Origin: an uncultured Prevotellaceae bacterium
Lineage (GTDB): Bacteria > Bacteroidota > Bacteroidia > Bacteroidales > Bacteroidaceae
NCBI GenBank assembly: GCA_902762565.1
Contig: CACWOS010000020.1
Span: forward strand, 25,235 to 89,234
DNA length: 64,000 nucleotides
Direction of reading: 5' to 3'
A program made the translations under genes and the position numbers. Positions 24,456-49,751 of this stretch are shown here, in pieces; the stretch's first letter is position 1, and each line of letters starts with the position of its first letter. Under the pieces are notes generated by a model. It had not been told where the DNA came from, did no database searches, and worked only from the letters and a program-made list of their open reading frames with translations.

Positions 24456-27290
24456 ATGAGACGAACTTTTCTTTTGGCATTATTGGGATTTGCTTTCTCA
24501 TCAATGCAAGCTCAGTCGTTGGTAGAAACGCAACGACAATATCTGAGTGGACATGGGTGCGATGATATGGTGCAGTGGGACTTCTTCTGCACTGATGGCC
24601 GAAATAGTGGGAAATGGACAAAGATAGGTGTTCCTTCATGTTGGGAACTGCAGGGCTTTGGCACGTACCAGTATGGCATGCGCTTCTATGGCAAGGCTAC
24701 GCCAGAGGGTATTGCTGACGAGACAGGCAAGTACAAGACAGAGTTCACTTTGCCAAAGGAGTGGGTAGGTCGTCAGATAGAGCTTGTATTCGAGGCAGCA
24801 TTTACAGAGATTCGTGTACAAATCAATGGTCGTAAGGCTGGTAATGGTACTTATCAAGGAGGCTTTACGCGACATACGATAGACGTGTCTGATCGTGTGT
24901 TCTTTGGTACGAAAAAGAACCGTTTGGAGGTTGAGGTGCTGAAGGAAAGTACGAATTCACAGGTAAATCTGGCTGAGCGTCGTGCGGACTACTGGAACTT
25001 TGGAGGTATCTGGCGTCCTGTGTTTATTGTCAGTAAGCCTATTCAAAATATACAGCGTGTAGCAATTGATGCTAAGGCTGATGGTCGTTTTATGGCTCAT
25101 GTTTTCCTGAACAAGGCAGTATCTCAAGCTTCAGTATGTGTTGATGTTATCGACGCCAATGGAAAGAAGGTCGCTACTAGTCCAGCTTTCACGACTGCCA
25201 GCGACGAAGCTAAGGTTGACTTCAGCGTTAAAAGCCCCAAACTGTGGAATGCTGAGCAGCCGAACCTTTATACGGCAGTCTTTACATTGAAAACTTCAGA
25301 GGGCAAGACACTCCATGTAGAACGCCAGAAGTTCGGTTTCCGTACTATTGAATATCGTCACACATATAATGGTGATAAGGAGGATGGCGTGTTTATCAAT
25401 GGACAGAAGGTGATCTTCAAGGGTGTCAATCGTCATTCGTTCCGTCCAGAGACAGGTCGTACGCTGTCGAAGGCCAAGAATATTGAGGATGTCAAGCTGA
25501 TTAAGAGCATGAATATGAATGCCGTGCGCCTGAGCCACTATCCAGCTGACCCAGAGTTTCTGGACGCTTGCGACTCGCTGGGACTTTATGTGGAGTGCGA
25601 ACAGCCAGGTTGGCATTGGGCTCACGAAACGATTGTTGGCAGTCAAATAGTAGAGGAAATGGTGACACGCGACGTGAACCATCCATCCATCATTTTCTGG
25701 AGCAATGGTAATGAAGGTGGCTTCAACTACGAACTGGAGCCAGTCTTTGCGAAGTTCGACCCTCAACAGCGTGTGGTGCTCTATCCTTGGGCTAATCGCA
25801 ATGGTTTCGAAACCAAGCACTATCGTTCTTGGGGTGAGACGGCAGACTATATGCGCCAAAAGGAAATCTTCATGCCTACAGAGTTTCTGCACGGACTGTA
25901 TGATGGAGGTCATGGAGCTGGTCTAAAGGATTACTGGAAGTTGATGATGTCGAATCCTCGTTGTGCAGGCGGCTTCCTGTGGGACTTGATGGACCAGGCT
26001 GTTGTCCGTACGGACCAAAACGGCATTCTTGACCCCGTGGGTAACTTTGGCTCTGATGGTATCGTTGGTCCTCACATGGAAAAGGAAGGCTCGTTCTATA
26101 CCATCCGCGAGGTATGGAGTCCTGTGCAGTTTTCACGAAGCCTGACAGGTATAAGTGTCAGGAACGATTATTGCTTCATCAATCTTAAGGACTGCCGGTT
26201 CAGCTACAAACTGCTGGATATGCCTGCCTATGGCGAGAAGGATGTCAAAGTTGTCATGGAAGGCAAGCTCGCTTCGCCTGATGTTGCACCAGGCCAAACA
26301 GGTAAGTTGAACATTGATCTAAATAATAGAAAGTTTGATGCTGACGTGGTAGAAGTAACAGCAATAGACCCATACGGACATGAGATAATTACATGGAGCT
26401 ACAAGTACTGGACAAAGGCAGGCAACTTCAACAGACCCACACTGCGTAAGAATACGCAACAGTACTCGTACACAGAGGAGGGCGACCAGCTGTTGGTGAA
26501 GAACGGCCCGCGTCAATACACCTTCTCCAAGAAGACGGGTAGGTTGATGGGAGTCTCTGTAGGCGATAAAAAACTCTCGTTCAGCAATGGTCCCCGCTTT
26601 GTAGCCGCTAAGCGTGCTGACCGTTCACAGGATGGCTTTTACAACCACGACGACAAGCAAGCTTTCCAGAAGAAGACACAATATACGGAGTATGCCGATC
26701 AGGGTGCCTTTGACGGCTTTATCTTCAGCGACAGTACGCTGGTGGCTAACTATCAGCATGGTACTATCAATCAGGTGACTTGGCGTTTCCTCGCTGATGG
26801 CGGAGTCTATATGAACGTTGACTACTACTTTAACGGCATCGTTGACCTGATGGGCATATGTTTCGACTATCCTGAGACGATGGTGAAAAGCAAGCAATGG
26901 GTAGGCAAGGGGCCCTATCGCGTCTGGCAGAATCGTCAGGAAGGTCCACAATATGGCTATTGGCAGAACGACTACAACGACCCCATTCCTGGCGAGTCGT
27001 GGGACTATCCTGAATTTAAGGGCTATTTCTCGAATGTCAATTGGATGAAGCTGAATACCAGCGAAGGCGCCATCGGCATCGAGATGATGACAGGAAAAGT
27101 AGGCGTCTACACACCTCGTGATGGTCGAGACCATATTCTCTACAACCTGCCAGAGACAGGCATCTCTATACTGACGACCATTCCTGCTGTTCGCAACAAG
27201 GTGAATACGACAGATTTGAATGGTCCCAGCGCCCAACCCTATTGGAGCAAAGGGAAAGGAAGCATCAAAGCCATCCTGAGATTTGAATGA
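24456..27290 (+). CDS. Glycoside hydrolase family 2
   Basis: NAVRLSHYPADPEFLDACDSLGLYV, WSNGNEGG and the usual sugar-binding / Ig / TIM-barrel order. Confidence 0.9.
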   Translation: MRRTFLLALLGFAFSSMQAQSLVETQRQYLSGHGCDDMVQWDFFCTDGRNSGKWTKIGVPSCWELQGFGTYQYGMRFYGKATPEGIADETGKYKTEFTLPKEWVGRQIELVFEAAFTEIRVQINGRKAGNGTYQGGFTRHTIDVSDRVFFGTKKNRLEVEVLKESTNSQVNLAERRADYWNFGGIWRPVFIVSKPIQNIQRVAIDAKADGRFMAHVFLNKAVSQASVCVDVIDANGKKVATSPAFTTASDEAKVDFSVKSPKLWNAEQPNLYTAVFTLKTSEGKTLHVERQKFGFRTIEYRHTYNGDKEDGVFINGQKVIFKGVNRHSFRPETGRTLSKAKNIEDVKLIKSMNMNAVRLSHYPADPEFLDACDSLGLYVECEQPGWHWAHETIVGSQIVEEMVTRDVNHPSIIFWSNGNEGGFNYELEPVFAKFDPQQRVVLYPWANRNGFETKHYRSWGETADYMRQKEIFMPTEFLHGLYDGGHGAGLKDYWKLMMSNPRCAGGFLWDLMDQAVVRTDQNGILDPVGNFGSDGIVGPHMEKEGSFYTIREVWSPVQFSRSLTGISVRNDYCFINLKDCRFSYKLLDMPAYGEKDVKVVMEGKLASPDVAPGQTGKLNIDLNNRKFDADVVEVTAIDPYGHEIITWSYKYWTKAGNFNRPTLRKNTQQYSYTEEGDQLLVKNGPRQYTFSKKTGRLMGVSVGDKKLSFSNGPRFVAAKRADRSQDGFYNHDDKQAFQKKTQYTEYADQGAFDGFIFSDSTLVANYQHGTINQVTWRFLADGGVYMNVDYYFNGIVDLMGICFDYPETMVKSKQWVGKGPYRVWQNRQEGPQYGYWQNDYNDPIPGESWDYPEFKGYFSNVNWMKLNTSEGAIGIEMMTGKVGVYTPRDGRDHILYNLPETGISILTTIPAVRNKVNTTDLNGPSAQPYWSKGKGSIKAILRFE

Positions 27291-41559: not shown

Positions 41560-42195
41560 ATGACACCACAAGAACTAAGAAACGAATCGTTGGCCACGAA
41601 GATGATCAAGAATCTGAACCGCCGCAACATGGAGGCCTTCTATTGCCCTACGGCAGAGGAGGCAGTGAAGAAAGTGTCCGAACTCATTGCTGACGGTAGC
41701 AGTGTGACGTGGGGAGGCTCTATGACTGTCCGCGACCTTGGCATTCCTGACATGCTCAGACGCCGTGGCACCCTCGAAGTACTTGATCGTGACCTTGTAG
41801 AGGGCGAGGCTGTTCATGACATCTATCTTCGTGCTTTTACAGCCGATGTCTATCTGACCAGTGCCAATGCCATCTCTGAGGATGGTGTTATCGTCAATGT
41901 TGATGGTAACGGCAATCGTGTGGCAGCCATTACTTGGGGCCCCAAGAAGGTCATCTTTATTATTGGCATGAACAAGGTAGCCCAAACAGTCGAGGCTGCT
42001 CTTTCCAGAGCCAGAGGTACGGCATCACCCATTAATGCCAAACGTTTCGATATCAAGACTCCCTGTCAGGTTGATGGCATGTGCCATAACTGCAATTCGC
42101 CCGAAAGCATCTGCAGCTATGTTCACTTCCTGCGCAACTCTCGCAATAAAGGTCGCCACGTCGTGGTACTGGTAGGCGAGAATCTTGGCTATTAA
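41560..42195 (+). CDS. LUD-domain protein (lactate-utilisation LutC/YkgG-like, DUF162)
   Basis: 211 aa; TSANAISEDGVIVNVDGNGNRV and a C-terminal CxxC region, typical of stand-alone LUD proteins. Confidence 0.65.
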   Translation: MTPQELRNESLATKMIKNLNRRNMEAFYCPTAEEAVKKVSELIADGSSVTWGGSMTVRDLGIPDMLRRRGTLEVLDRDLVEGEAVHDIYLRAFTADVYLTSANAISEDGVIVNVDGNGNRVAAITWGPKKVIFIIGMNKVAQTVEAALSRARGTASPINAKRFDIKTPCQVDGMCHNCNSPESICSYVHFLRNSRNKGRHVVVLVGENLGY

Positions 42196-42376: not shown

Positions 42377-42596
42377 GGGTGCGCAAAGTAAGCAAGCACC
42401 TCCCCTCCTCCCTTCGTATAGTTTGAATGCCGATTTAGAAAGGGATTGAAGCACGGGAGGTGTCGTTCCAACTCCTCCTTTTCACCTCCGAAGTAACCCT
42501 GAAGTGACCCTCTGAAAAGTTGGACGATTAATGCTAATTTTACAAATTTTAAGAGATATTTCTGGGTCAAAATATTGCAGGCCGCAATATATTTCG

Positions 42597-42604
42597 TACC
42601 TTTG
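42597..42604 (+). promoter_or_regulatory. -7 promoter box TAccTTTG internal to the element, for the VapE-like gene
   Basis: Consensus match 84 nt upstream of the ATG at 42688. Confidence 0.5.
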
Positions 42605-42687
42605 CATCGGCATTCATGAGTGGGTGCTATAGGCTATGAAGAACACATGCCTATAAACCGAATTATTAATTAAAGATCTTAAAAAGA

Positions 42688-43902
42688 ATGAGTAAAAATC
42701 TAACTGTAAACGGCGAGGCTATGAACGCTTCGCTGGAAGGGATGCTCGCTGTCGAGCTGTTTCTGAACGACAAGTACCTGTTCCGTCGCAACGTGCTGAA
42801 CGGTAAGGTAGAATTTTCGAAAAAGCCAACTGAGGCCAATGAACCCGTCTGGCGTCCGCTGACGGAGCAAGCACTGAACAGTATCGTCCTTGAGGCGATG
42901 CGCGCGGACATCTGCGAGGGAAAGAATCCAAAGTCGGACATCCAGACGATTATCAATTCTGATGATGTGCCGACGTTCGATCCCATCAAGACGTATCTCG
43001 ACAGCCTGCCCCAATGGGATGGACAGAACCATGTGGCTCAGCTGTTTGGCCGTATTCCTGGCATCAGTTCTGAGCAACTCGCGTACCTTAGTATATGGTT
43101 GCGCTCTTGTGTTGCTCATTGGCTGCAGATGGATACGCTTCACGGCAACGAATGCGTACCTACGCTGATTGGCGCTCAGGGGTGTGGCAAGACAACCTTC
43201 CTGCGTCGACTGCTGCCCACACATCTGCGCCAGTACTATCTGGACCACCTGAACCTGTCGAACAAGTTCGATAAGGAGATGGCACTGACAAACAATCTGC
43301 TTGTGAACCTCGATGAACTCGAGGCCATCCGCCGCAGTCAGCATGCGTCACTGAAGCAGTTGCTGTCGAAGAACAAAGTGAACGGACGTAAGATCTATGG
43401 CGATTCGCAGGACGACCGTCCGCGTTATGCGTCGTTTGTGGCAACCACCAACAACCGTCATCCGCTGACGGACGGCACAGGAAGTCGTCGCTACATCTGT
43501 CTGACGATTCCTGATGGTCAGCTCATCAACAACGATGGCGACATTGACTATGACCAGCTGTATGCGCAGGTGCTGTACGAACTGCAAGAGCTGAAAGCTC
43601 CGTATTGGTTTAACAACGACGAGGTGAAGCGTATTCAGGAGATGAACCAGGAGTTTATGGAGCAGAAGGATATGGCAGAAATCGTTACAGCCTGTTTCCG
43701 TAAGCCAAAGGATGGTGAGCAGGTGAAGACGATGAATGGCACTCAGATGATTAAGTTGATGCAGAAGGATTATCCTTCGCTGAAACTCGACCACAGCACC
43801 CGAATCCATTTGGGACAGGCTATGAAAGACCTAGGCTACGAGCATACGGAGCATAGCCATGTAGCCTTCTACAAGGTCGTTCCAAAAGTCAAAGCAGCTT
43901 GA
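42688..43902 (+). CDS. VapE/VirE-family P-loop NTPase (DUF3874-type; D5/SF3-helicase-like)
   Basis: Walker A (LIGAQGCGKTTFLRRL), Walker B (LLVNLDELE) and the sensor-like FVATTN; 404 aa. It has the architecture common to Bacteroidales virulence-protein-E / DUF3874 genes. Confidence 0.75.
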   Translation: MSKNLTVNGEAMNASLEGMLAVELFLNDKYLFRRNVLNGKVEFSKKPTEANEPVWRPLTEQALNSIVLEAMRADICEGKNPKSDIQTIINSDDVPTFDPIKTYLDSLPQWDGQNHVAQLFGRIPGISSEQLAYLSIWLRSCVAHWLQMDTLHGNECVPTLIGAQGCGKTTFLRRLLPTHLRQYYLDHLNLSNKFDKEMALTNNLLVNLDELEAIRRSQHASLKQLLSKNKVNGRKIYGDSQDDRPRYASFVATTNNRHPLTDGTGSRRYICLTIPDGQLINNDGDIDYDQLYAQVLYELQELKAPYWFNNDEVKRIQEMNQEFMEQKDMAEIVTACFRKPKDGEQVKTMNGTQMIKLMQKDYPSLKLDHSTRIHLGQAMKDLGYEHTEHSHVAFYKVVPKVKAA

Positions 43903-44010
43903 GCAGTAACGGGAGGTGTCGATGAGGTGTCTCAGCAGCACCTCCCGTGCTTCAATCCCTTTGCCTGTCGGCATTTGAGCCTCTTAAAGGGATATGGGAG
44001 GTGTATGTCA

Positions 44011-44051
44011 AAAAACAAGCGATGTGCCCGTGAGCTACATCGCTTGTTTTT
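44011..44051. terminator. Bidirectional terminator-like hairpin
   Basis: aaaaacaagcgatgt (44011-44025) pairs with acatcgcttgttttt (44037-44051). Confidence 0.7.
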
Positions 44052-44053
44052 GT

Positions 44054-44073
44054 TAATACTCATCCTCGTTGAA
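44054..44073. repeat. att-like 20-mer, copy A (taatactcatcctcgttgaa)
   Basis: Identical to copy B and 19/20 to copy C. Its reverse complement reads FNEDEY-stop. Confidence 0.9.
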
Positions 44074-44155
44074 GTTTAAAGCACATACTGAGTACCAGCG
44101 AGTTACAGTGCTCCGTGCCATTATTGTGCCACTAATTTTAGACATAGAATTAAGT

Positions 44156-44605
44156 TTATGCCAAGAGTTTCTTCACAATCTCAGAGATGACTCGTCCATC
44201 AGCCTTTCCTGCCAACTGCTTGCTGGCAGTGCCCATTACCTTTCCCATCTCCTTCATGCTTGTGGCTCCAACTTCAGCAATGATCTTCTTCACCTCTGCC
44301 TCTATCTCCTCTTGGGAAAGTTGTTTCGGCAAATAACTCTCCAACACTTCTACCTGTGCCAACTCTGCATCAGCCAAGTCCTGACGTCCTGCCTGTGTGT
44401 AGGTTGCCGCAGTCTCTTTGCCCTGCTTTGCAAGTTTTGAGATAATCTTCAATGCATCAGCATCAGCCAATGTGTCGTTGGCTCCTGGAGCAGTCTTTGC
44501 CTCAAGGAACACTTTCTTAATGTTGCGAAGCGTTTCCAAACGCACCTTGTCGCGAGCCTTCATTGCGGATTTGATGTCCTCGCTAATCTGATCGAATAAA
44601 GTCAT
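44156..44605 (-). CDS. GatB/YqeY domain-containing protein
   Basis: MTLFDQISEDIKSAMKARDKVRLETLRNIK...; 149 aa; typical YqeY. Confidence 0.9.
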   Translation of the reverse strand: MTLFDQISEDIKSAMKARDKVRLETLRNIKKVFLEAKTAPGANDTLADADALKIISKLAKQGKETAATYTQAGRQDLADAELAQVEVLESYLPKQLSQEEIEAEVKKIIAEVGATSMKEMGKVMGTASKQLAGKADGRVISEIVKKLLA

Positions 44606-44634
44606 AATGCTATTTTTTTAACTTTAACATGATG

Positions 44635-44642
44635 CAAAGATA
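44635..44642 (-). promoter_or_regulatory. -7 promoter box (TAtcTTTG on minus strand) for the YqeY gene
   Basis: The plus strand reads CAAAGATA, 30 nt upstream of the ATG at 44605. Confidence 0.5.
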
Positions 44643-44970
44643 CAGTATTTTTTCTTATCTACCCCTTTTTACGTGAAGTCTTAGACTTTTTTAGCGATTA
44701 TACACGCACGAACCTTCAATTATAGATAATGGAATCCGTGAAGCCTGCCGTGCGTGTGGATAGTGGTCTCATATAATTACTGAATAATCACTTTTAAGCT
44801 AAAAAAGTGGCACATGTGCCAACTTTTCAGTGCAAAACGTACAAACGAACCGTTCTGCATACCAGGAATCCCATTTGGGCATTGACTTAAGCACACAGAA
44901 AGACGGCCCGAGGCATCCAATCGTCTACCTCAGGCCGTCTGAAAGCGCAAAGTTGAGTTAAATCGCGAAC

Positions 44971-44990
44971 TAATACTCATCCTCGTTGAA
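44971..44990. repeat. att-like 20-mer, copy B
   Basis: taatactcatcctcgttgaa, preceded on the left by hairpins at 44901-44940 and 44803-44827. Confidence 0.9.
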
Positions 44991-45337
44991 AACTTGCCTC
45001 ATAACTGATTATCAGAACCTTACGACATTCTTAACTATTTTTAGCCAAATAAACTGCACGGTCTGAGACTATCAAAGGCGATTCGCTGACATATTGGGCA
45101 AACATATCCTGCGACCTCTTTCACTATAGAAAGAATTCGAATATATCAAAATCACCCTATTACATCTACACTATCTCTTACTAAATGTTAAATATTAATT
45201 TGGTTTATATTGTAAACTTATCTATCTTTGCACCGTGATTCGAACACATGAGGCAGAATCCTGGCTTTCTGCAGGAGCCGGGACGAGGCCGGAGAACAAA
45301 GAAAACAAAGTGTGTAACATCCAAAAACAAAAGAACA

Positions 45338-45964
45338 ATGGAAGAAAAAAGCAATCTGACTGCCGAGCGCAGTCTGGAGATAATCAGGGAATCAATAGAG
45401 CGCAGTCAACGCACCATCAACAAGAACTCGGCCATTCCGCTCATCTGGTGGGGAGCTTGTGTCGTCGTATTTTCGCTATTTATCGCTTACCTGTGGAAAA
45501 ATCATGGCGGGCCGGCGTGGAATATGCTTTGGGCCGTATTATGGTTGATAGGCTATGCAGGCAACTGGCTCATTGACAAGCGAAGGGAGCGCGTGCCGAC
45601 GACCTTTGTGGGTAAGACCATCGGACATGTATGGGCGACATTTGGTGTGTTTTGCTGTGGCGTAGGCATGATATTCGGTTTTATCGGCTGCGGAATGCTA
45701 CCTATGGAACTAATTATGCACAAGGTGTATATCTTCGGCTGCATCACCAGCGTTATCTCCCTGTGTTTCGGAATGGGCACAACCATCACAGGCCTCGTCA
45801 TCCGAAACCACGTCATTCAGGTGTGCGGCCTTGTAGCGGGCATCGGCGGATTCTTCGGAGCTTTGCACTTCTCAGCTCATGCACAACTCTATGTGATGGC
45901 TGTCGTGGCCTTGATTGGTCTAATCGTGCCAGGTGTAACCATTCTCTTGCAAAACCAGAAATAA
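45338..45964 (+). CDS. Hypothetical multi-pass membrane protein
   Basis: Several hydrophobic segments; upstream partner of a small wHTH regulator. A TAtcTTTG box at 45223-45230 means the 45248 start cannot be excluded. Confidence 0.6.
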   Translation: MEEKSNLTAERSLEIIRESIERSQRTINKNSAIPLIWWGACVVVFSLFIAYLWKNHGGPAWNMLWAVLWLIGYAGNWLIDKRRERVPTTFVGKTIGHVWATFGVFCCGVGMIFGFIGCGMLPMELIMHKVYIFGCITSVISLCFGMGTTITGLVIRNHVIQVCGLVAGIGGFFGALHFSAHAQLYVMAVVALIGLIVPGVTILLQNQK

Positions 45965-45976
45965 GGAGGTGCCAAT

Positions 45977-46261
45977 ATGTTCAAACCGTTAGACCCACTG
46001 CTGCACTCCGAACTGCGACTGGCCGTGATGTCGCTGCTTATCAGTGCCGACGAGGCCGAGTTCCCTTACATCAAGGAGCAGACAGGAGCCACGGCTGGCA
46101 ACCTGAGTGTGCAGATTGACAAACTCTCGGCGGCGGGCTACATCGAGGTCGAGAAGACTTTCAAAGGCAAGAGGCCATGCACACTCTGCCGCATCACCCC
46201 TGCTGGTCTGAAAGCTTTTGAAGAGTATGTTGAATCGTTAAAGAGTTATTTGAAAATATGA
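45977..46261 (+). CDS. Winged-helix transcriptional regulator (HTH_34 / ArsR-MarR-like)
   Basis: LDPLLHSELRLAVMSLLISADEAEFPYIKEQTGATAGNLSVQIDKLSAAGYIEVEK; 94 aa. Confidence 0.75.
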   Translation: MFKPLDPLLHSELRLAVMSLLISADEAEFPYIKEQTGATAGNLSVQIDKLSAAGYIEVEKTFKGKRPCTLCRITPAGLKAFEEYVESLKSYLKI

Positions 46262-47550
46262 AAAAACTGTTTTTGTTGTTTATACTTTGTATCACCACTA
46301 TCGCTACTAAAGCACAAAGTGGCGATGCAAAAGGTGAGTGGTCTGGACAACTGAATGTATTTGGCCAGAAACTAACACTCGTGTTCCTTCTAGACGATGA
46401 AAACTGTACATTAGACTCACCAGACCAGGGCGTCAAGGGTGTTCCTGCTAAATTGGAGCGCACAGAAACAGGTATCAAAGTTTCAGTTTCGTCAATCAAT
46501 GCCAGCTACGAAGGTGTAAATAAAGGTGACTCCATCACGGGAACATTTAAACAGCGTGGGGTGTCATTTCCACTGACCCTAAAACCGGGCACGATGAAAC
46601 GCAACCGTCCGCAGACACCCGTCGGTCCCAACCCCTACCAGACACAGGAGGTGAGTTTCAATAATGGCGATGCAGTGCTGAAAGGCACACTTATTCTGCC
46701 TCAGAAGTATACAAAGGAAACGCCGGTGGTGCTGATGGTGACAGGTAGTGGACTTCAAAACAGAGATGAAGAAGTCTTTGAGCACAAACCCTTTGCTGTC
46801 ATTGCCGATGCTTTGGCCAAACAAGGCATCGCCACACTCCGCTATGACGACCGCGGTTTCGGGGAATCTAAGGGCGACCTGGTAAATGTCACCACCGAAG
46901 ATCTTAAGAACGATGCACTAGCAGGCGTGGAACTATTACGCAAGCAGTTCAAGAAAGTTGGCGTCCTTGGCCATAGCGAGGGCGGCACCATCGGACTCAT
47001 ACTGGCAGCAGAAGGCAAAGTGGACTTCGTTGTAAGTTTGGCTGGAGGAGTGACATCATTCGAGGAAACACTATTGGACCAAAACCGATGGACACTACAA
47101 CAGGCAGGATATTCGAAGGATGTGACAGGCCGTTATTGCACAGTACTTAAAGGTCTGTTCGACGAACTGAAGGTAGGCAGAAATCCAGCACCAGCCAACC
47201 ACAATCTGCCTGCGGAACTGGAGCAGAACCTCAAGATGGCACAAGCACAGAGTAGCACGCCCTATATGCGTTATTTCCTCGGACTGGATTTAACCGGCAG
47301 CTTAGGAAAAATCACCTGCCCCGTACTGGCACTGAACGGAACGAAGGACCGTCAAGTGAACTGCGAAGAGAATTTGAATGCTCTCCGAGGAGGACTTGCA
47401 GGTCAGAAAGAAATCAAGGCCATGGATGGACTCAACCACATGTTCCAGCACTGTGGCACGGGCGATCCGAGTGAATATAAGGACATCGAAGAAACATTTG
47501 CACCCGAAGCTCTTGACATCATCACGACATGGCTGAAGAAGTTTAAATAA
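46258..47550 (+). CDS. Secreted alpha/beta hydrolase
   Basis: Signal peptide, nucleophile elbow (GHSEGG) and a C-terminal DGLNHMF (His); ATGA overlap with the regulator gene. Confidence 0.75.
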   Translation: MKKLFLLFILCITTIATKAQSGDAKGEWSGQLNVFGQKLTLVFLLDDENCTLDSPDQGVKGVPAKLERTETGIKVSVSSINASYEGVNKGDSITGTFKQRGVSFPLTLKPGTMKRNRPQTPVGPNPYQTQEVSFNNGDAVLKGTLILPQKYTKETPVVLMVTGSGLQNRDEEVFEHKPFAVIADALAKQGIATLRYDDRGFGESKGDLVNVTTEDLKNDALAGVELLRKQFKKVGVLGHSEGGTIGLILAAEGKVDFVVSLAGGVTSFEETLLDQNRWTLQQAGYSKDVTGRYCTVLKGLFDELKVGRNPAPANHNLPAELEQNLKMAQAQSSTPYMRYFLGLDLTGSLGKITCPVLALNGTKDRQVNCEENLNALRGGLAGQKEIKAMDGLNHMFQHCGTGDPSEYKDIEETFAPEALDIITTWLKKFK

Positions 47551-47619
47551 TCTCACCAGTGAATTGAATCTCGATACAATCTTGCCTATACCAAACAGAT
47601 TTTCTGATATATCTATTAT

Positions 47620-47650
47620 GAGCCTGCCGATGACAATTACCGGCAGGCTC
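47620..47650. terminator. Bidirectional terminator hairpin
   Basis: gagcctgccg-atgacaatta-ccggcaggctc, followed by gtatttta. Confidence 0.75.
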
Positions 47651-47665
47651 GTATTTTATAGAGTA

Positions 47666-48046
47666 TCACATATGAATGTTACGGTTCCTGGTTTGCAGAC
47701 AAGCTTCCTTCATATCTTGGGATATAGCAGAGAGTTGCCCTTTGACACGCTCACACTCCTCGCGATTCAGAAAGGGAAGTGAGGCATTGTACACAGTTTC
47801 TGCTGCTTTTTCCTTATCGGGTTGGCCATTCATATAGCGTTTGACATCGCACTCCTGGCGATAGCTGAAACTACGATAGCCAGACTGAATATAATCTACA
47901 ACAGCCTTAACAGCACCTCTTAGCAGTTCAGGAAGATAGACAGATAGAAAACCGTTCGGAAAACACGAACAGTTGTGACAGGCAGATATTATGCCTATTA
48001 TACAAAAATGCGTTATGCAAATTTGTATAATTGTATTTTTAATCCC
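47666..48046 (-). pseudogene. Start-less 126-codon open frame (possible gene remnant)
   Basis: Hand translation: ...YLPELLRGAVKAVVDYIQSGYRSFSYRQECDVKRYMNGQPDKEKAAETVYNASLPFLNREECERVKGQLSAISQDMKEACLQTRNRNIHM-stop. The only ATG would leave 55 aa. No family recognised. Confidence 0.3.
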
Positions 48047-49451
48047 CTACCACTTCCCAGTAACCACCTTTGTCTGGGCCAATACGTTTAATTATTCCTT
48101 TATCTTGTAAAGACCTAATATGTTTAGCAATAGTTCGACGAATAATCCCAATGGAATCTGCCATTTCCTGGGTTGTAACATAAGGATTCTCACGAATTAA
48201 GTTTATTATTTTCTGTGTACTTTTCTGTGTACTTTTCTGTGTACTTTTCTGTGTAGTATCTGCATTACTACCCTGTAAAGTCGGAATATATGGTATCTCG
48301 ATACGGTACACATCCTGCTCTTCTATGATTGGTTCCTTGCCATTAGCATAAAGCGGCGTATACTTGAACATCTTTCTTATTCCACTGCCCAGTTCCTCAA
48401 CTATACCCATTTGAGAAAACACATTGGCTATCTTTGGATTCTTACGATGTGGACGCATAGTCTGTAGGTTGATAGTACCATAGACGTATGGGATATTCCA
48501 ATTCTCTGTGACGATGCGATCGCGATAAATCGTAAACGTCGTTGGATAAGCACTACTGTACTCGCGATGGATGATGAGGTTTAGGGCAACCTCTCTCAGT
48601 ATCCTGTCACGCAGACTGAATCTCTGTATTCCCTCAATGTAGGGCTGTTCTGGCAGATGCTTCTTGATAAAGTCCATCATTATTGGATAGGCTTTCAACA
48701 GATTGCAACTCAACAACTCCCTGTCATCATATAACTCTATGTCGTTTACTCGGCACAAGAGATCTATTCTGTATGTTGGCAAAGCAGTTGCAATAGCATG
48801 ACTGTTACCAAACAACAAGATTGCTGCCAGTGTCAGTCCCTCTTTGCCTGTTTCAGGATCAATGGCAATTAGTTCACCTGAACGTATAATTTCCTCGTTT
48901 GACAGATTTAGCCAAGGATGTTTCGAGTTCTCAATACGAATTCCTCTTTTCAGTTCATCAAAAGCTTCCTCGTCGAGATCCTTCATCCCTAGCATCGGAT
49001 ATACCCTATCCTCAGTCTTCATTCTGCTCTTACGAATAAACAGATTGGCAATCTGCTCGGTACTACGCAATTCAAAGTCACCATCCTGATTACGGTCGTA
49101 ATAGATTCCTTTATAGCTATGAGCCTGGTTACTCTCAGGGACATAGAAATAAATAATCTGCTTACCGTCTATTTCCATCGGCTCATAACTCAAATAGTAA
49201 GTCGGCTTGAACAGTTGAGGATTATTCATATCCTTTGCCAACTGATCCATCTGCTCTTGAACTTTCGCAGGATTGATGCCGACAATATTACCGTCGTTGT
49301 CTGCGCCCAATACTACATGGCCACCTCTACGATTCAAGAACGCACAGATAGATTCATATACAGAGCGAGCCAGACTGTCTTGCGACTTCTTGAACTCGAT
49401 CTCTGTACCTTCCTTTTGGGCTATTATCGTCTTTAACTTATCTGGAGTCAT
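48039..49451 (-). CDS. AlbA_2 (Schlafen-like, divergent-AAA) / HATPase-like / C-terminal wHTH protein
   Basis: N-terminus (KEGTEIEFKKSQDSLARSVYESICAFLNRRGGHVVLG), mid region (ALNLIIHREYS) and C-terminal wHTH (VTTQEMADSIGIIRRTIAKHIRSLQDKGIIKRIG). AT-rich. Confidence 0.65.
   Translation of the reverse strand: MTPDKLKTIIAQKEGTEIEFKKSQDSLARSVYESICAFLNRRGGHVVLGADNDGNIVGINPAKVQEQMDQLAKDMNNPQLFKPTYYLSYEPMEIDGKQIIYFYVPESNQAHSYKGIYYDRNQDGDFELRSTEQIANLFIRKSRMKTEDRVYPMLGMKDLDEEAFDELKRGIRIENSKHPWLNLSNEEIIRSGELIAIDPETGKEGLTLAAILLFGNSHAIATALPTYRIDLLCRVNDIELYDDRELLSCNLLKAYPIMMDFIKKHLPEQPYIEGIQRFSLRDRILREVALNLIIHREYSSAYPTTFTIYRDRIVTENWNIPYVYGTINLQTMRPHRKNPKIANVFSQMGIVEELGSGIRKMFKYTPLYANGKEPIIEEQDVYRIEIPYIPTLQGSNADTTQKSTQKSTQKSTQKIINLIRENPYVTTQEMADSIGIIRRTIAKHIRSLQDKGIIKRIGPDKGGYWEVVGD
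48209..48256. repeat. In-frame 12-bp tandem repeat x4 (encodes TQKS x4)
   Basis: ttttctgtgtac x3 plus ttttctgtgtag. Confidence 0.9.
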
Positions 49452-49474
49452 GATTGTCTTTTTTTGTCAGGGTG

Positions 49475-49482
49475 CAAAGGTA
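49475..49482 (-). promoter_or_regulatory. -7 promoter box (TAccTTTG on minus strand) for the AlbA_2 gene
   Basis: The plus strand reads CAAAGGTA, 24 nt upstream of the ATG at 49451. Confidence 0.5.
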
Positions 49483-49494
49483 ACGAGAAAAATC

Positions 49495-49521
49495 AAAAAA
49501 GTGGCAAATTAATGCCACTTT
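49495..49521 (-). terminator. Rho-independent terminator of the DUF2795 gene
   Basis: The minus strand reads aaagtggca-ttaatt-tgccac followed by ttttttgattttt. Confidence 0.8.
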
Positions 49522-49529
49522 CCTAATTG

Positions 49530-49751
49530 TTAGTACTCATCCTCGTTGAATAGGAAGTCTTCTTTTGTGGGATAGTCGGGCCAAATCTCCTCGATACTCT
49601 CGTAGATATCGCCCTCGTCTTCAATCTCCTGTAAATTCTCCAGCACCTCGAGGGGAGCGCCAGAGCGGATTGCGTAATCTATCAGTTCGTCCTTGGTTGC
49701 GGGCCAGGGAGCATCTTCCAATTTTGAAGCTAATTCTAGTGTCCAATACAT
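49530..49751 (-). CDS. DUF2795 domain-containing protein
   Basis: MYWTLELASKLEDAPWPATKDELIDYAIRSGAPLEVLENLQEIEDE... The start is set at 49751 because the -7 box at 49785-49792 lies inside the longer ORF-track call. Confidence 0.75.
   Translation of the reverse strand: MYWTLELASKLEDAPWPATKDELIDYAIRSGAPLEVLENLQEIEDEGDIYESIEEIWPDYPTKEDFLFNEDEY
49531..49550. repeat. att-like 20-mer, copy C (the functional 3' end of the DUF2795 gene)
   Basis: tagtactcatcctcgttgaa, which is FNEDEY plus the last two bases of the TAA stop (49530-49532) on the minus strand. Confidence 0.9.

Follow-up and report, generated by a model that had tools for sequence, protein, structure and literature searches.

A probable integration hotspot at the 3' end of a DUF2795 gene and its tandem integrase-less units in rumen Prevotellaceae

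Results

Organization of the locus and of the repeated gene end

Here we describe the region behind the gene for a DUF2795 protein in an uncultured Prevotellaceae bacterium (GenBank assembly GCA_902762565.1, contig CACWOS010000020.1), in which direct copies of the end of this gene bound two segments of DNA, hereafter unit 1 and unit 2. The window, meaning the whole stretch of 64,000 nucleotides that was analysed (positions 25,235 to 89,234 of the contig), contains from left to right a LUD-domain gene, a VapE-like gene, a terminator (terminator A), a first copy of the gene end (core A), unit 1, core B, unit 2, core C, the DUF2795 gene and an adenosyltransferase gene; the coordinates are collected in Table 1. 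Throughout the text, G000 designates the genome of the window and the other G- labels other genomes, while L- labels refer to fetched loci or contigs and X- labels to metagenome runs.

The 17-mer TACTCATCCTCGTTGAA is present in three direct copies on the plus strand of the window, at 44057-44073 (A), 44974-44990 (B) and 49534-49550 (C), with no fourth match in the window at up to two mismatches, and in the whole 3.39-Mb assembly it is limited to these three copies with up to one mismatch allowed. The chance expectation for matches to the 17-mer is 0.02, and three or more copies were obtained in 0 of 100 shuffles. A degenerate 21-bp core (up to 6 mismatches in 21) was sought across 30000-56000 and gave no further copy, including to the left of the VapE cassette. 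On the minus strand, all three copies read FNEDEY followed by a stop codon (TAA in A, TAG in B and TAA in C); over 20 bp, A and B show no difference and C matches at 19 positions, and the three cores differ only in their last bases (TAT or TAC, TAA or TAG). Only copy C terminates a real gene, the one encoding the 73-aa DUF2795 protein, the frames ending at A and B being 39 and 12 codons long from stop to stop, and 30 and 10 codons from the first Met. A preliminary description of this DNA, made from the sequence only, had reported the three copies at these positions, their degrees of identity, the shared reading with its stop codons and the two short frames, all of which were borne out; the dispersal of the 17-mer as a genomic repeat, which it had named as part of what would speak against it, is ruled out since the motif is present only three times in the genome. 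Further, unitigs of four source-like rumen metagenomes cross each of the three junctions with zero mismatches, and thus the repeats are not an assembly artefact. No tRNA or tmRNA target was found in the window. All three cores, as well as the pseudo-copies of every array inspected, show the attachment-site property by which an element-borne copy restores the frame and the stop of the target.

The two segments of 4.5 kb and 0.9 kb, the latter with yqeY, that had been delimited between the copies stand as units 2 and 1, with the limits given in Table 1. A terminator-type hairpin had also been noted beside each copy; the folds at A, at B (44901-44940, part of a fold of -34.5 kcal/mol, z = -4.7) and at C were confirmed, the one at C having the classical form of a terminator, while an additional hairpin at 44803-44827 is real and weaker (z = -2.1). 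GTGGCA...TGCCAC hairpins like the terminator of unit 2 also lie behind cores in G162, G306 and L191, the last of which carries the hairpin left end of unit 2 behind a pseudo-core. Regarding terminator A, a homologue directly follows the uninterrupted DUF2795 gene in G016 (L012), and others lie behind the final core in the G306 (L095) and L100 arrays. Core A and terminator A are thus most likely the displaced original gene end. A hairpin like terminator A also lies in G147 behind a core at the edge of a unit with HTH_34 and membrane protein genes, so that this terminator type is not exclusive to array ends.

Conserved arms and their distribution among ruminant Prevotellaceae

Each false gene end is preceded, in the sense of the gene, by a conserved arm of ~65 nt that reaches precisely as far as the first core base. 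Raw counts of the 17-mer were discarded as a measure of attachment (att) copies: in a sample of 401 genomes of the genus the 17-mer matched in 185, many of them with 2-5 same-strand copies on one contig, and these counts are inflated by its chance occurrence in an unrelated conserved gene (...EIPFNEDEYENGRRED...; L061-L071, L078). Therefore, arm-plus-core patterns were used instead, scanned as exact patterns in one genome per GTDB species. Arm and core were found together in at least 119 genomic stretches, and among the matches listed all come from ruminant Prevotellaceae, including Xylanibacter brevis ATCC 19188, X. ruminicola KHT3, Segatella bryantii DSM 11371, and Prevotella sp. MA2016 and tc2-28. 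Among these listed matches, arms ending in AAGTT (families 1a and 1b, with arm B of the window in 1a) account for 77 of 129 copies, and arms ending in TAAAC or TAAAT (arm A and A-like) for 36 of 129, with smaller groups ending in TACAT and AACTC. yqeY precedes the arm in 20 of the 31 TAAAC copies listed and is lacking in 7, the end of the stretch being too near in the other 4.

All arm families share a common layout, with an imperfect palindromic box 18-35 nt before the core (e.g., TTGATAATCAA and GTTGATAATCAAT) and, near -45 to -60, another conserved block; both are putative recombinase-binding sites. The conserved arms occur only distally and share homology with the right ends of elements that carry an integrase.

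Thousands of rumen contigs encode the identical 73-aa DUF2795 protein. In ten of these, the gene directly upstream is always that for the adenosyltransferase and the downstream genes are all different, with the break in synteny exactly at the stop codon; in two of the ten, the gene end is present a second time, 1.2 kb (L056) and 3.5 kb (L058) downstream.

Integrases at the same site in related genomes

A search for the Pfam domain Phage_integrase (PF00589) in six genomes with multiple copies revealed an integrase near a core in G220, in G298 (twice, on contigs C16 and C22) and in G162 (contig C67), those of G298 C22 and G162 C67 being family integrases near a core that may be a true gene end or a further copy. 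In G220, the stop codon of DUF2795 is followed, after 197 nt, by the gene for a 453-aa tyrosine integrase (Arm-DNA-bind_5, Phage_int_SAM_5 and Phage_integrase). An integrase 40% identical lies behind the true gene end in G010, and one 35% identical is found in G298 C16, 300 nt behind a second-position core. The G220 element spans 14.4 kb, from the core to its end in an arm of family 1a plus core, and besides the integrase it encodes AlbA_2, DUF6371, an AAA_25/DnaB-like protein and cargo, with a CoA-enzyme activase and two AraC regulators among its further products; neither Pfam nor NCBIfam revealed a recognisable relaxase. The same element encodes a 602-aa protein (L091 8738-10546) with no match in Pfam or NCBIfam, a candidate mobilisation protein.

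Both ends of unit 2 are homologous to this element: window 48275-49451, within the AlbA_2 gene, displays 90% nucleotide and 85% amino acid identity to the gene that follows the G220 integrase, and window 44970-45107 (arm B and core B) matches the element's right end with 86% identity. Arm B displays 85-88% identity to the arms of G259, G147 and L058. The G220 element has a 1.4-kb integrase gene between the core and AlbA_2 which unit 2 lacks, only 78 nt, containing the terminator and a promoter-like box, separating the DUF2795 stop from the AlbA_2 start in the window; a 3.3-kb unit of G259 (core-AlbA_2-arm-core) likewise has no integrase. From these alignments, unit 2 appears to be a relative of the G220 element minus its integrase, which may have been lost by deletion.

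By Pfam, no recombinase or relaxase was found among the open reading frames of at least 90 aa in 44074-49529. Neither tblastn nor a family profile identified a cognate integrase elsewhere in G000, the best match of this genome to the profile of three integrases scoring 56 bits, in comparison with 687-825 bits within the family. Thus, the cognate recombinase for which the preliminary description proposed a search is lacking in G000, while tyrosine integrases lie behind the same core in G220, G010 and G298 C16.

The yqeY gene of unit 1

The yqeY gene of the array is the sole yqeY of G000, and one copy per genome was found in every genome tested. Seven relatives of the same genus have yqeY immediately after ftsZ, a position which in G000 (contig C1:16577-16713, outside the window) is a 137-nt spacer free of yqeY. 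YqeY proteins encoded by array-linked copies are 96-100% identical, and those of ftsZ-linked copies 73-88%; the yqeY genes of G259 and G147, located on other contigs, correspond to 79-82% protein identity. Further, at least nine metagenome contigs, unrelated in their flanks, carry a stretch 91-95% identical to window 44053-44703, which comprises the yqeY promoter and gene, arm A and core A, and the module of yqeY, arm A and core is also present in X. ruminicola KHT3 and S. bryantii, with a module identity across contexts of 91-97%. A 1.23-kb cassette of thioredoxin gene, yqeY and arm A is 97.4% identical between L056 and L100, whose flanks are unrelated, the homology extending from the first base of one core to the last base of the next; the same cassette lies behind DUF2795 in X. 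ruminicola KHT3. Furthermore, yqeY is 93-97% identical between genomes whose adenosyltransferase and DUF2795 genes are 65-76% and 83-90% identical, respectively. This identity, decoupled from host relatedness, together with the empty position behind ftsZ, argues that a captured yqeY may have spread horizontally and displaced the native copy.

Junctions in metagenomes

Public metagenome runs were examined as assembled (Logan) contigs. One contig of run X5 has the AlbA_2 unit (1 mismatch in 1325 nt) connected, through core C, with a unit bearing an arm of type 2, and not with the gene. In runs X1, X2 and X4, four different alternative flanks adjoin 44053/44054 behind a yqeY-arm A-core module at least 97% identical to that of the window. 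Word depth over yqeY in the source-like metagenomes was ~2-5 times that of its neighbours. The joint in X5 and the alternative flanks point to variation in co-resident populations.

Discussion

The 17-21 bp at the 3' end of the DUF2795 gene very probably constitute the core of the chromosomal attachment site (attB) for a group of tyrosine-integrase elements of rumen Prevotellaceae, the units of the window being tandem relics of the cis-mobilizable element (CIME) type which arose by accretion. Serial site-specific integration at the 3' end of the gene, as advanced in the preliminary description, is supported by the integrases, by the arms and by the homology of both ends of unit 2 to the G220 element; its further proposal, that incoming DNA restores the gene end and brings a terminator, finds support in the cores, which hold the last six codons, and in the hairpins. 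Both units are flanked by direct att copies, with exact cores, shared boundaries and distal arms, and neither has an integrase or genes for transfer or mobilisation by Pfam, all of which are CIME features. The features of integrative and mobilizable elements are distributed differently: an own integrase is lacking in the units of the window and present in their relatives in G220, G010 and G298, and neither relaxase nor origin of transfer was recognised in the window units. Lacking an integrase, in a genome that also lacks a cognate one, the units correspond to CIME-like relics that would be immobile unless a helper element arrives; integrase-less units might be moved in trans.

Under the proposed mechanism, an incoming circle would carry the arm of ~65 nt, the core and then the left end, usually with a terminator followed by the integrase gene. 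Recombination within the core would place the element directly behind the gene, where the core copy of the element would restore FNEDEY and the stop codon and the element would provide a new terminator, while the original gene end would be displaced to the element's far side, with the arm of the element in front of it. Repeated integration at the gene-proximal core would then stack elements in tandem. If the exchange takes place upstream of the varying last bases of the cores, the crossover would lie inside TTCAACGAGGATGAGTA. In the window, unit 1 was probably acquired first, and unit 2 later at the gene-proximal core.

Several observations weigh against this account. Within the species no polymorphism was seen at the junctions, since five same-species loci, which together cover all three, show identical junctions where they overlap; the strain variation that the preliminary description proposed to look for was found instead in related genomes and in co-resident populations. 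Likewise, the assembled contigs of public runs contained no excised circle, another of its proposed checks, and no empty site for the species of the window. Among the fetched loci, a family integrase was found behind only 3-4 of ~150 cores with at least 2 kb downstream, a rarity by which simple decay may not be the whole story: the predominance of integrase-less units fits heavy decay and equally a movement in trans of short att-bounded units. Regarding unit 1, its proximal part (44704-44970) varies between contexts, and no integrase-bearing parent was found among the elements compared. Finally, the yqeY genes of G220 and X. brevis ATCC 19188 (96% identical) lie just beyond the last core, lack arm A and are within a conserved right flank of 2.5 kb, which is also a caveat to the horizontal replacement of yqeY. 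Given this last observation and the variable proximal part, unit 1 could also be trapped chromosomal DNA, as considered below.

The rarity of the integrase leads to a first alternative, possible though on balance doubtful, by which units made of cargo, an arm of ~65 nt and a core would be the normal mobile form of an integron-like cassette system, moved in trans by rare integrase-bearing elements. The arm families are few and well conserved, the thioredoxin-yqeY-arm A cassette is nearly identical from core to core in L056 and L100 and is present in KHT3, the yqeY cassettes are far more alike than the adenosyltransferase and DUF2795 genes of the same genomes, and the word depth over yqeY exceeds that of its neighbours, as would be expected for such cassettes. 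However, a stationary unit with different elements inserted at the flanking cores gives the same pattern, and the proximal parts of the yqeY units vary between contexts. The integrases are of the ordinary type of Bacteroidota integrative elements and not IntI (the G220 integrase scores 31.8 bits with the integron-integrase model TIGR02249, whose cut-off is 265), no integrase resides beside the site in G000, and no circular cassette junction was present in the assembled contigs. In its widest form, rumen Prevotellaceae would keep behind DUF2795 an integron-like store of cassettes shuffled across species in trans, one of which would have captured the ftsZ-linked yqeY and replaced the native copy in many species; we regard this as a tentative idea, with the balance of evidence leaning the other way. 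The likeness to integrons is that short cargo units stand in an ordered array and each has a conserved recombination site at its end; in contrast, there is neither an IntI-type integrase nor a resident integrase-attI platform here, the arms, where inspected, do not appear to be hairpin sites of the attC type, and many units have their own promoters and terminators.

A second alternative concerns unit 1 only, which would not be an element but chromosomal yqeY DNA bracketed by decayed elements on both sides, or the product of gene capture after imprecise events. We consider it unlikely, although it agrees with the yqeY genes found beyond the last core in G220 and X. brevis and with a unit consisting of a single gene with its own promoter; moreover, gene capture by accretion is documented for streptococcal ICE (integrative and conjugative element) and CIME tandems, as reported through PMC5704250. 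On the other hand, arm A (~62 nt) has the layout of the other arms and ends at the core in the 36 copies listed, some of them away from yqeY, relatives of the same genus have their native yqeY behind ftsZ, at the position that is empty in G000, and array-linked YqeY proteins are more alike than ftsZ-linked ones, whatever the relatedness of their hosts. Lastly, the formation of the repeats by local duplication or homologous recombination without any recombinase, which would suit the lack of a recombinase in the window and of the integrase family in the genome, is strongly disfavoured and highly improbable, as the identity of the three copies breaks off abruptly at one and the same base on either side, the site is occupied in many genomes by conserved arms and cognate integrases, and the inserted segments are unrelated to each other.

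The accretion of integrase elements, which we prefer, has precedents in other bacteria. In the ICESt1/ICESt3-CIME tandems at the 3' end of fda in Streptococcus thermophilus, the target is also the 3' end of a protein-coding gene that is restored by the element (PMC5704250), and there are likewise at least three direct att copies, att-bounded units without integrase or transfer genes, and new integration at the gene-end site. The pattern found here agrees with a published origin of tandems in three steps, namely integration, degeneration into a CIME in which attL and attR persist, and a further integration at the gene-end site (PMC5704250). The arrays described here differ in belonging to Bacteroidota, in the DUF2795 target, in the lineage of the integrase and in that integrase-less units far outnumber intact ones. 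The ssrA islands of Dehalococcoides are similarly arranged in tandem behind a single-copy gene, with ~20-bp repeats of its 3' end each with a conserved motif immediately upstream; where there is an integration module it occupies the gene-proximal edge, around half of the islands lack one, and CIME-like behaviour has been suggested by their authors (PMC3146451). Those islands use the serine recombinase DsiB (CcrB-like) and a tmRNA gene as target, unlike the tyrosine integrase and protein-coding target found here (PMC3146451). Judged by their arrangement, we take the Dehalococcoides islands to be the closest architectural analogue.

Integrases of the Bacteroidota group that includes those of NBU and MTnPi4 have a layout of arm-binding, SAM-like and catalytic domains, as in the G220 integrase. 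NBU1, NBU2 and MTnPi4 of Prevotella intermedia are also mobilisable elements of Bacteroidota with one tyrosine integrase, the 3' end of a conserved gene as target and a short core, but they target tRNA genes, in contrast to the protein-coding gene used by the family at the DUF2795 site (PMC5704250). A further difference is that no relaxase was recognised in the G220 element, and the units of the window have no mobility genes at all. In our literature search, no paper was found that links DUF2795 to an integrase or to integration, or that describes integration hotspots in rumen Prevotella. The hotspot is newly recognised, and its proposed mechanism is conventional.

Regarding its significance, the site represents a hotspot of gene gain and loss in the dominant rumen genus, used in more than 100 species-level genomes including cultured strains, and accounts for the break in gene order exactly at DUF2795. 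In addition, yqeY, a conserved gene of the cell-division cluster, resides here on att-bounded DNA. A single-copy integration vector could be built from the integrase and an attP of ~100-200 bp (arm, core and left end), directed at a 21-bp target conserved across Prevotellaceae; vectors based on NBU2 fill this role in Bacteroides. Genetic tools for Prevotella are described as scarce in at least one report (PMC8634118).

Additional features of the locus

Table 1. Features at the DUF2795 locus, in window coordinates from left to right.
Feature	Position	Strand	Remarks
LUD-domain gene	41560-42195		
VapE-like gene	42688-43902		
Terminator A	44011-44051	-	Flank behind the last core; AAAAACAAGCGATG...CATCGCTTGTTTTT; fold -23 kcal/mol, z = -7.3
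Core copy A	44053-44073	-	TTCAACGAGGATGAGTATTAA, ending TATTAA; outermost junction on the distal side, probably the original end of the gene, displaced
Unit 1 (0.9 kb)	44074-44969		267 nt with two hairpins (44901-44940, 44803-44827), yqeY and arm A
Arm A	44074-44155	-	Distal end of unit 1; TTAGTGGCACAATAATGGCACAGAGCACCGTAACTCGyTGGTACTCAGTATGTGCTTTAAAC, then core
yqeY gene	44156-44605	-	Pfam YqeY, E = 1e-46; own promoter region to 44703
Core copy B	44970-44990	-	Ending TATTAG; unit 2/unit 1 junction
Unit 2 (4.5 kb)	44991-49529		Integrase-less (Pfam on open reading frames)
Arm B	44991-45107	-	Conserved distal end of unit 2, family 1a; ...TTTGGCTAAAAATAGTTAAGAATG..GTAAGTTGyTGATAATCAr....GAGCCAAGTT, then core
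Membrane protein gene	45248-45964	+	238 aa; no Pfam or NCBIfam match
HTH_34 gene	45977-46261	+	Pfam
Alpha/beta hydrolase gene	46258-47550	+	Pfam
Non-coding or remnant module	47560-48040		Widespread
AlbA_2/HATPase_c_4/wHTH gene	48039-49451	-	Pfam
Terminator hairpin of unit 2	49491-49528	-	Directly behind the restored stop; 16-pair stem and T run; -19.6 kcal/mol, z = -8.6
Core copy C	49530-49550	-	TTCAACGAGGATGAGTACTAA, ending TACTAA; gene/unit 2 junction, attL-like; real gene end
DUF2795 gene	49530-49751	-	73 aa; PF11387, E = 7e-18; 3' end is the probable chromosomal attachment site
Cobalamin adenosyltransferase gene		-	Directly upstream of DUF2795

A VapE cassette (42397-44003) adjoins terminator A, as the preliminary description had it when placing the end of a VapE element ~50 nt to the left of copy A; this cassette is a separate element, and nothing connects it to the att site. 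In a related contig (L059), FTHFS and DUF3857 genes occupy the place where the window has the LUD and VapE genes and both units, and consequently the whole stretch of 41.5-49.5 kb is variable.

Within unit 2, the module at 47560-48040, including a start-less frame of 126 codons, was found with 72-91% identity in more than 15 other arrays, and Pfam gave no match for the start-less frame (47669-48046). A same-species contig (L107), 99.7-100% identical over 11 kb, lacks the 92 nt of 45976-46067, including the HTH_34 start, and unitigs of several runs break near 46083-46096. A joint of 46255 to 49530, from the end of HTH_34 to the DUF2795 stop and skipping 3274 nt with the AlbA_2 and hydrolase genes, was present in one contig each of runs X3 and X7; its shorter side has only 27-28 letters, and it may correspond to a smaller unit of HTH_34 and membrane protein genes from another strain or organism.

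In S. bryantii DSM 11371 (L149), the hydrolase, HTH_34, membrane protein and yqeY genes and arm A follow in the same order as in the window, with 86-92% nucleotide identity. At L149 2330-2800, in place of arm B and core B, there are tandem repeats of ~75 nt (...CGCAAAGAACGCAAAGACGCCAAGTTTTTTAGGATGCAAAGAGTTTAAGA...) and a degenerate core, which is preceded by an arm of the type proper to S. bryantii, present as well at 1425 and 6024.

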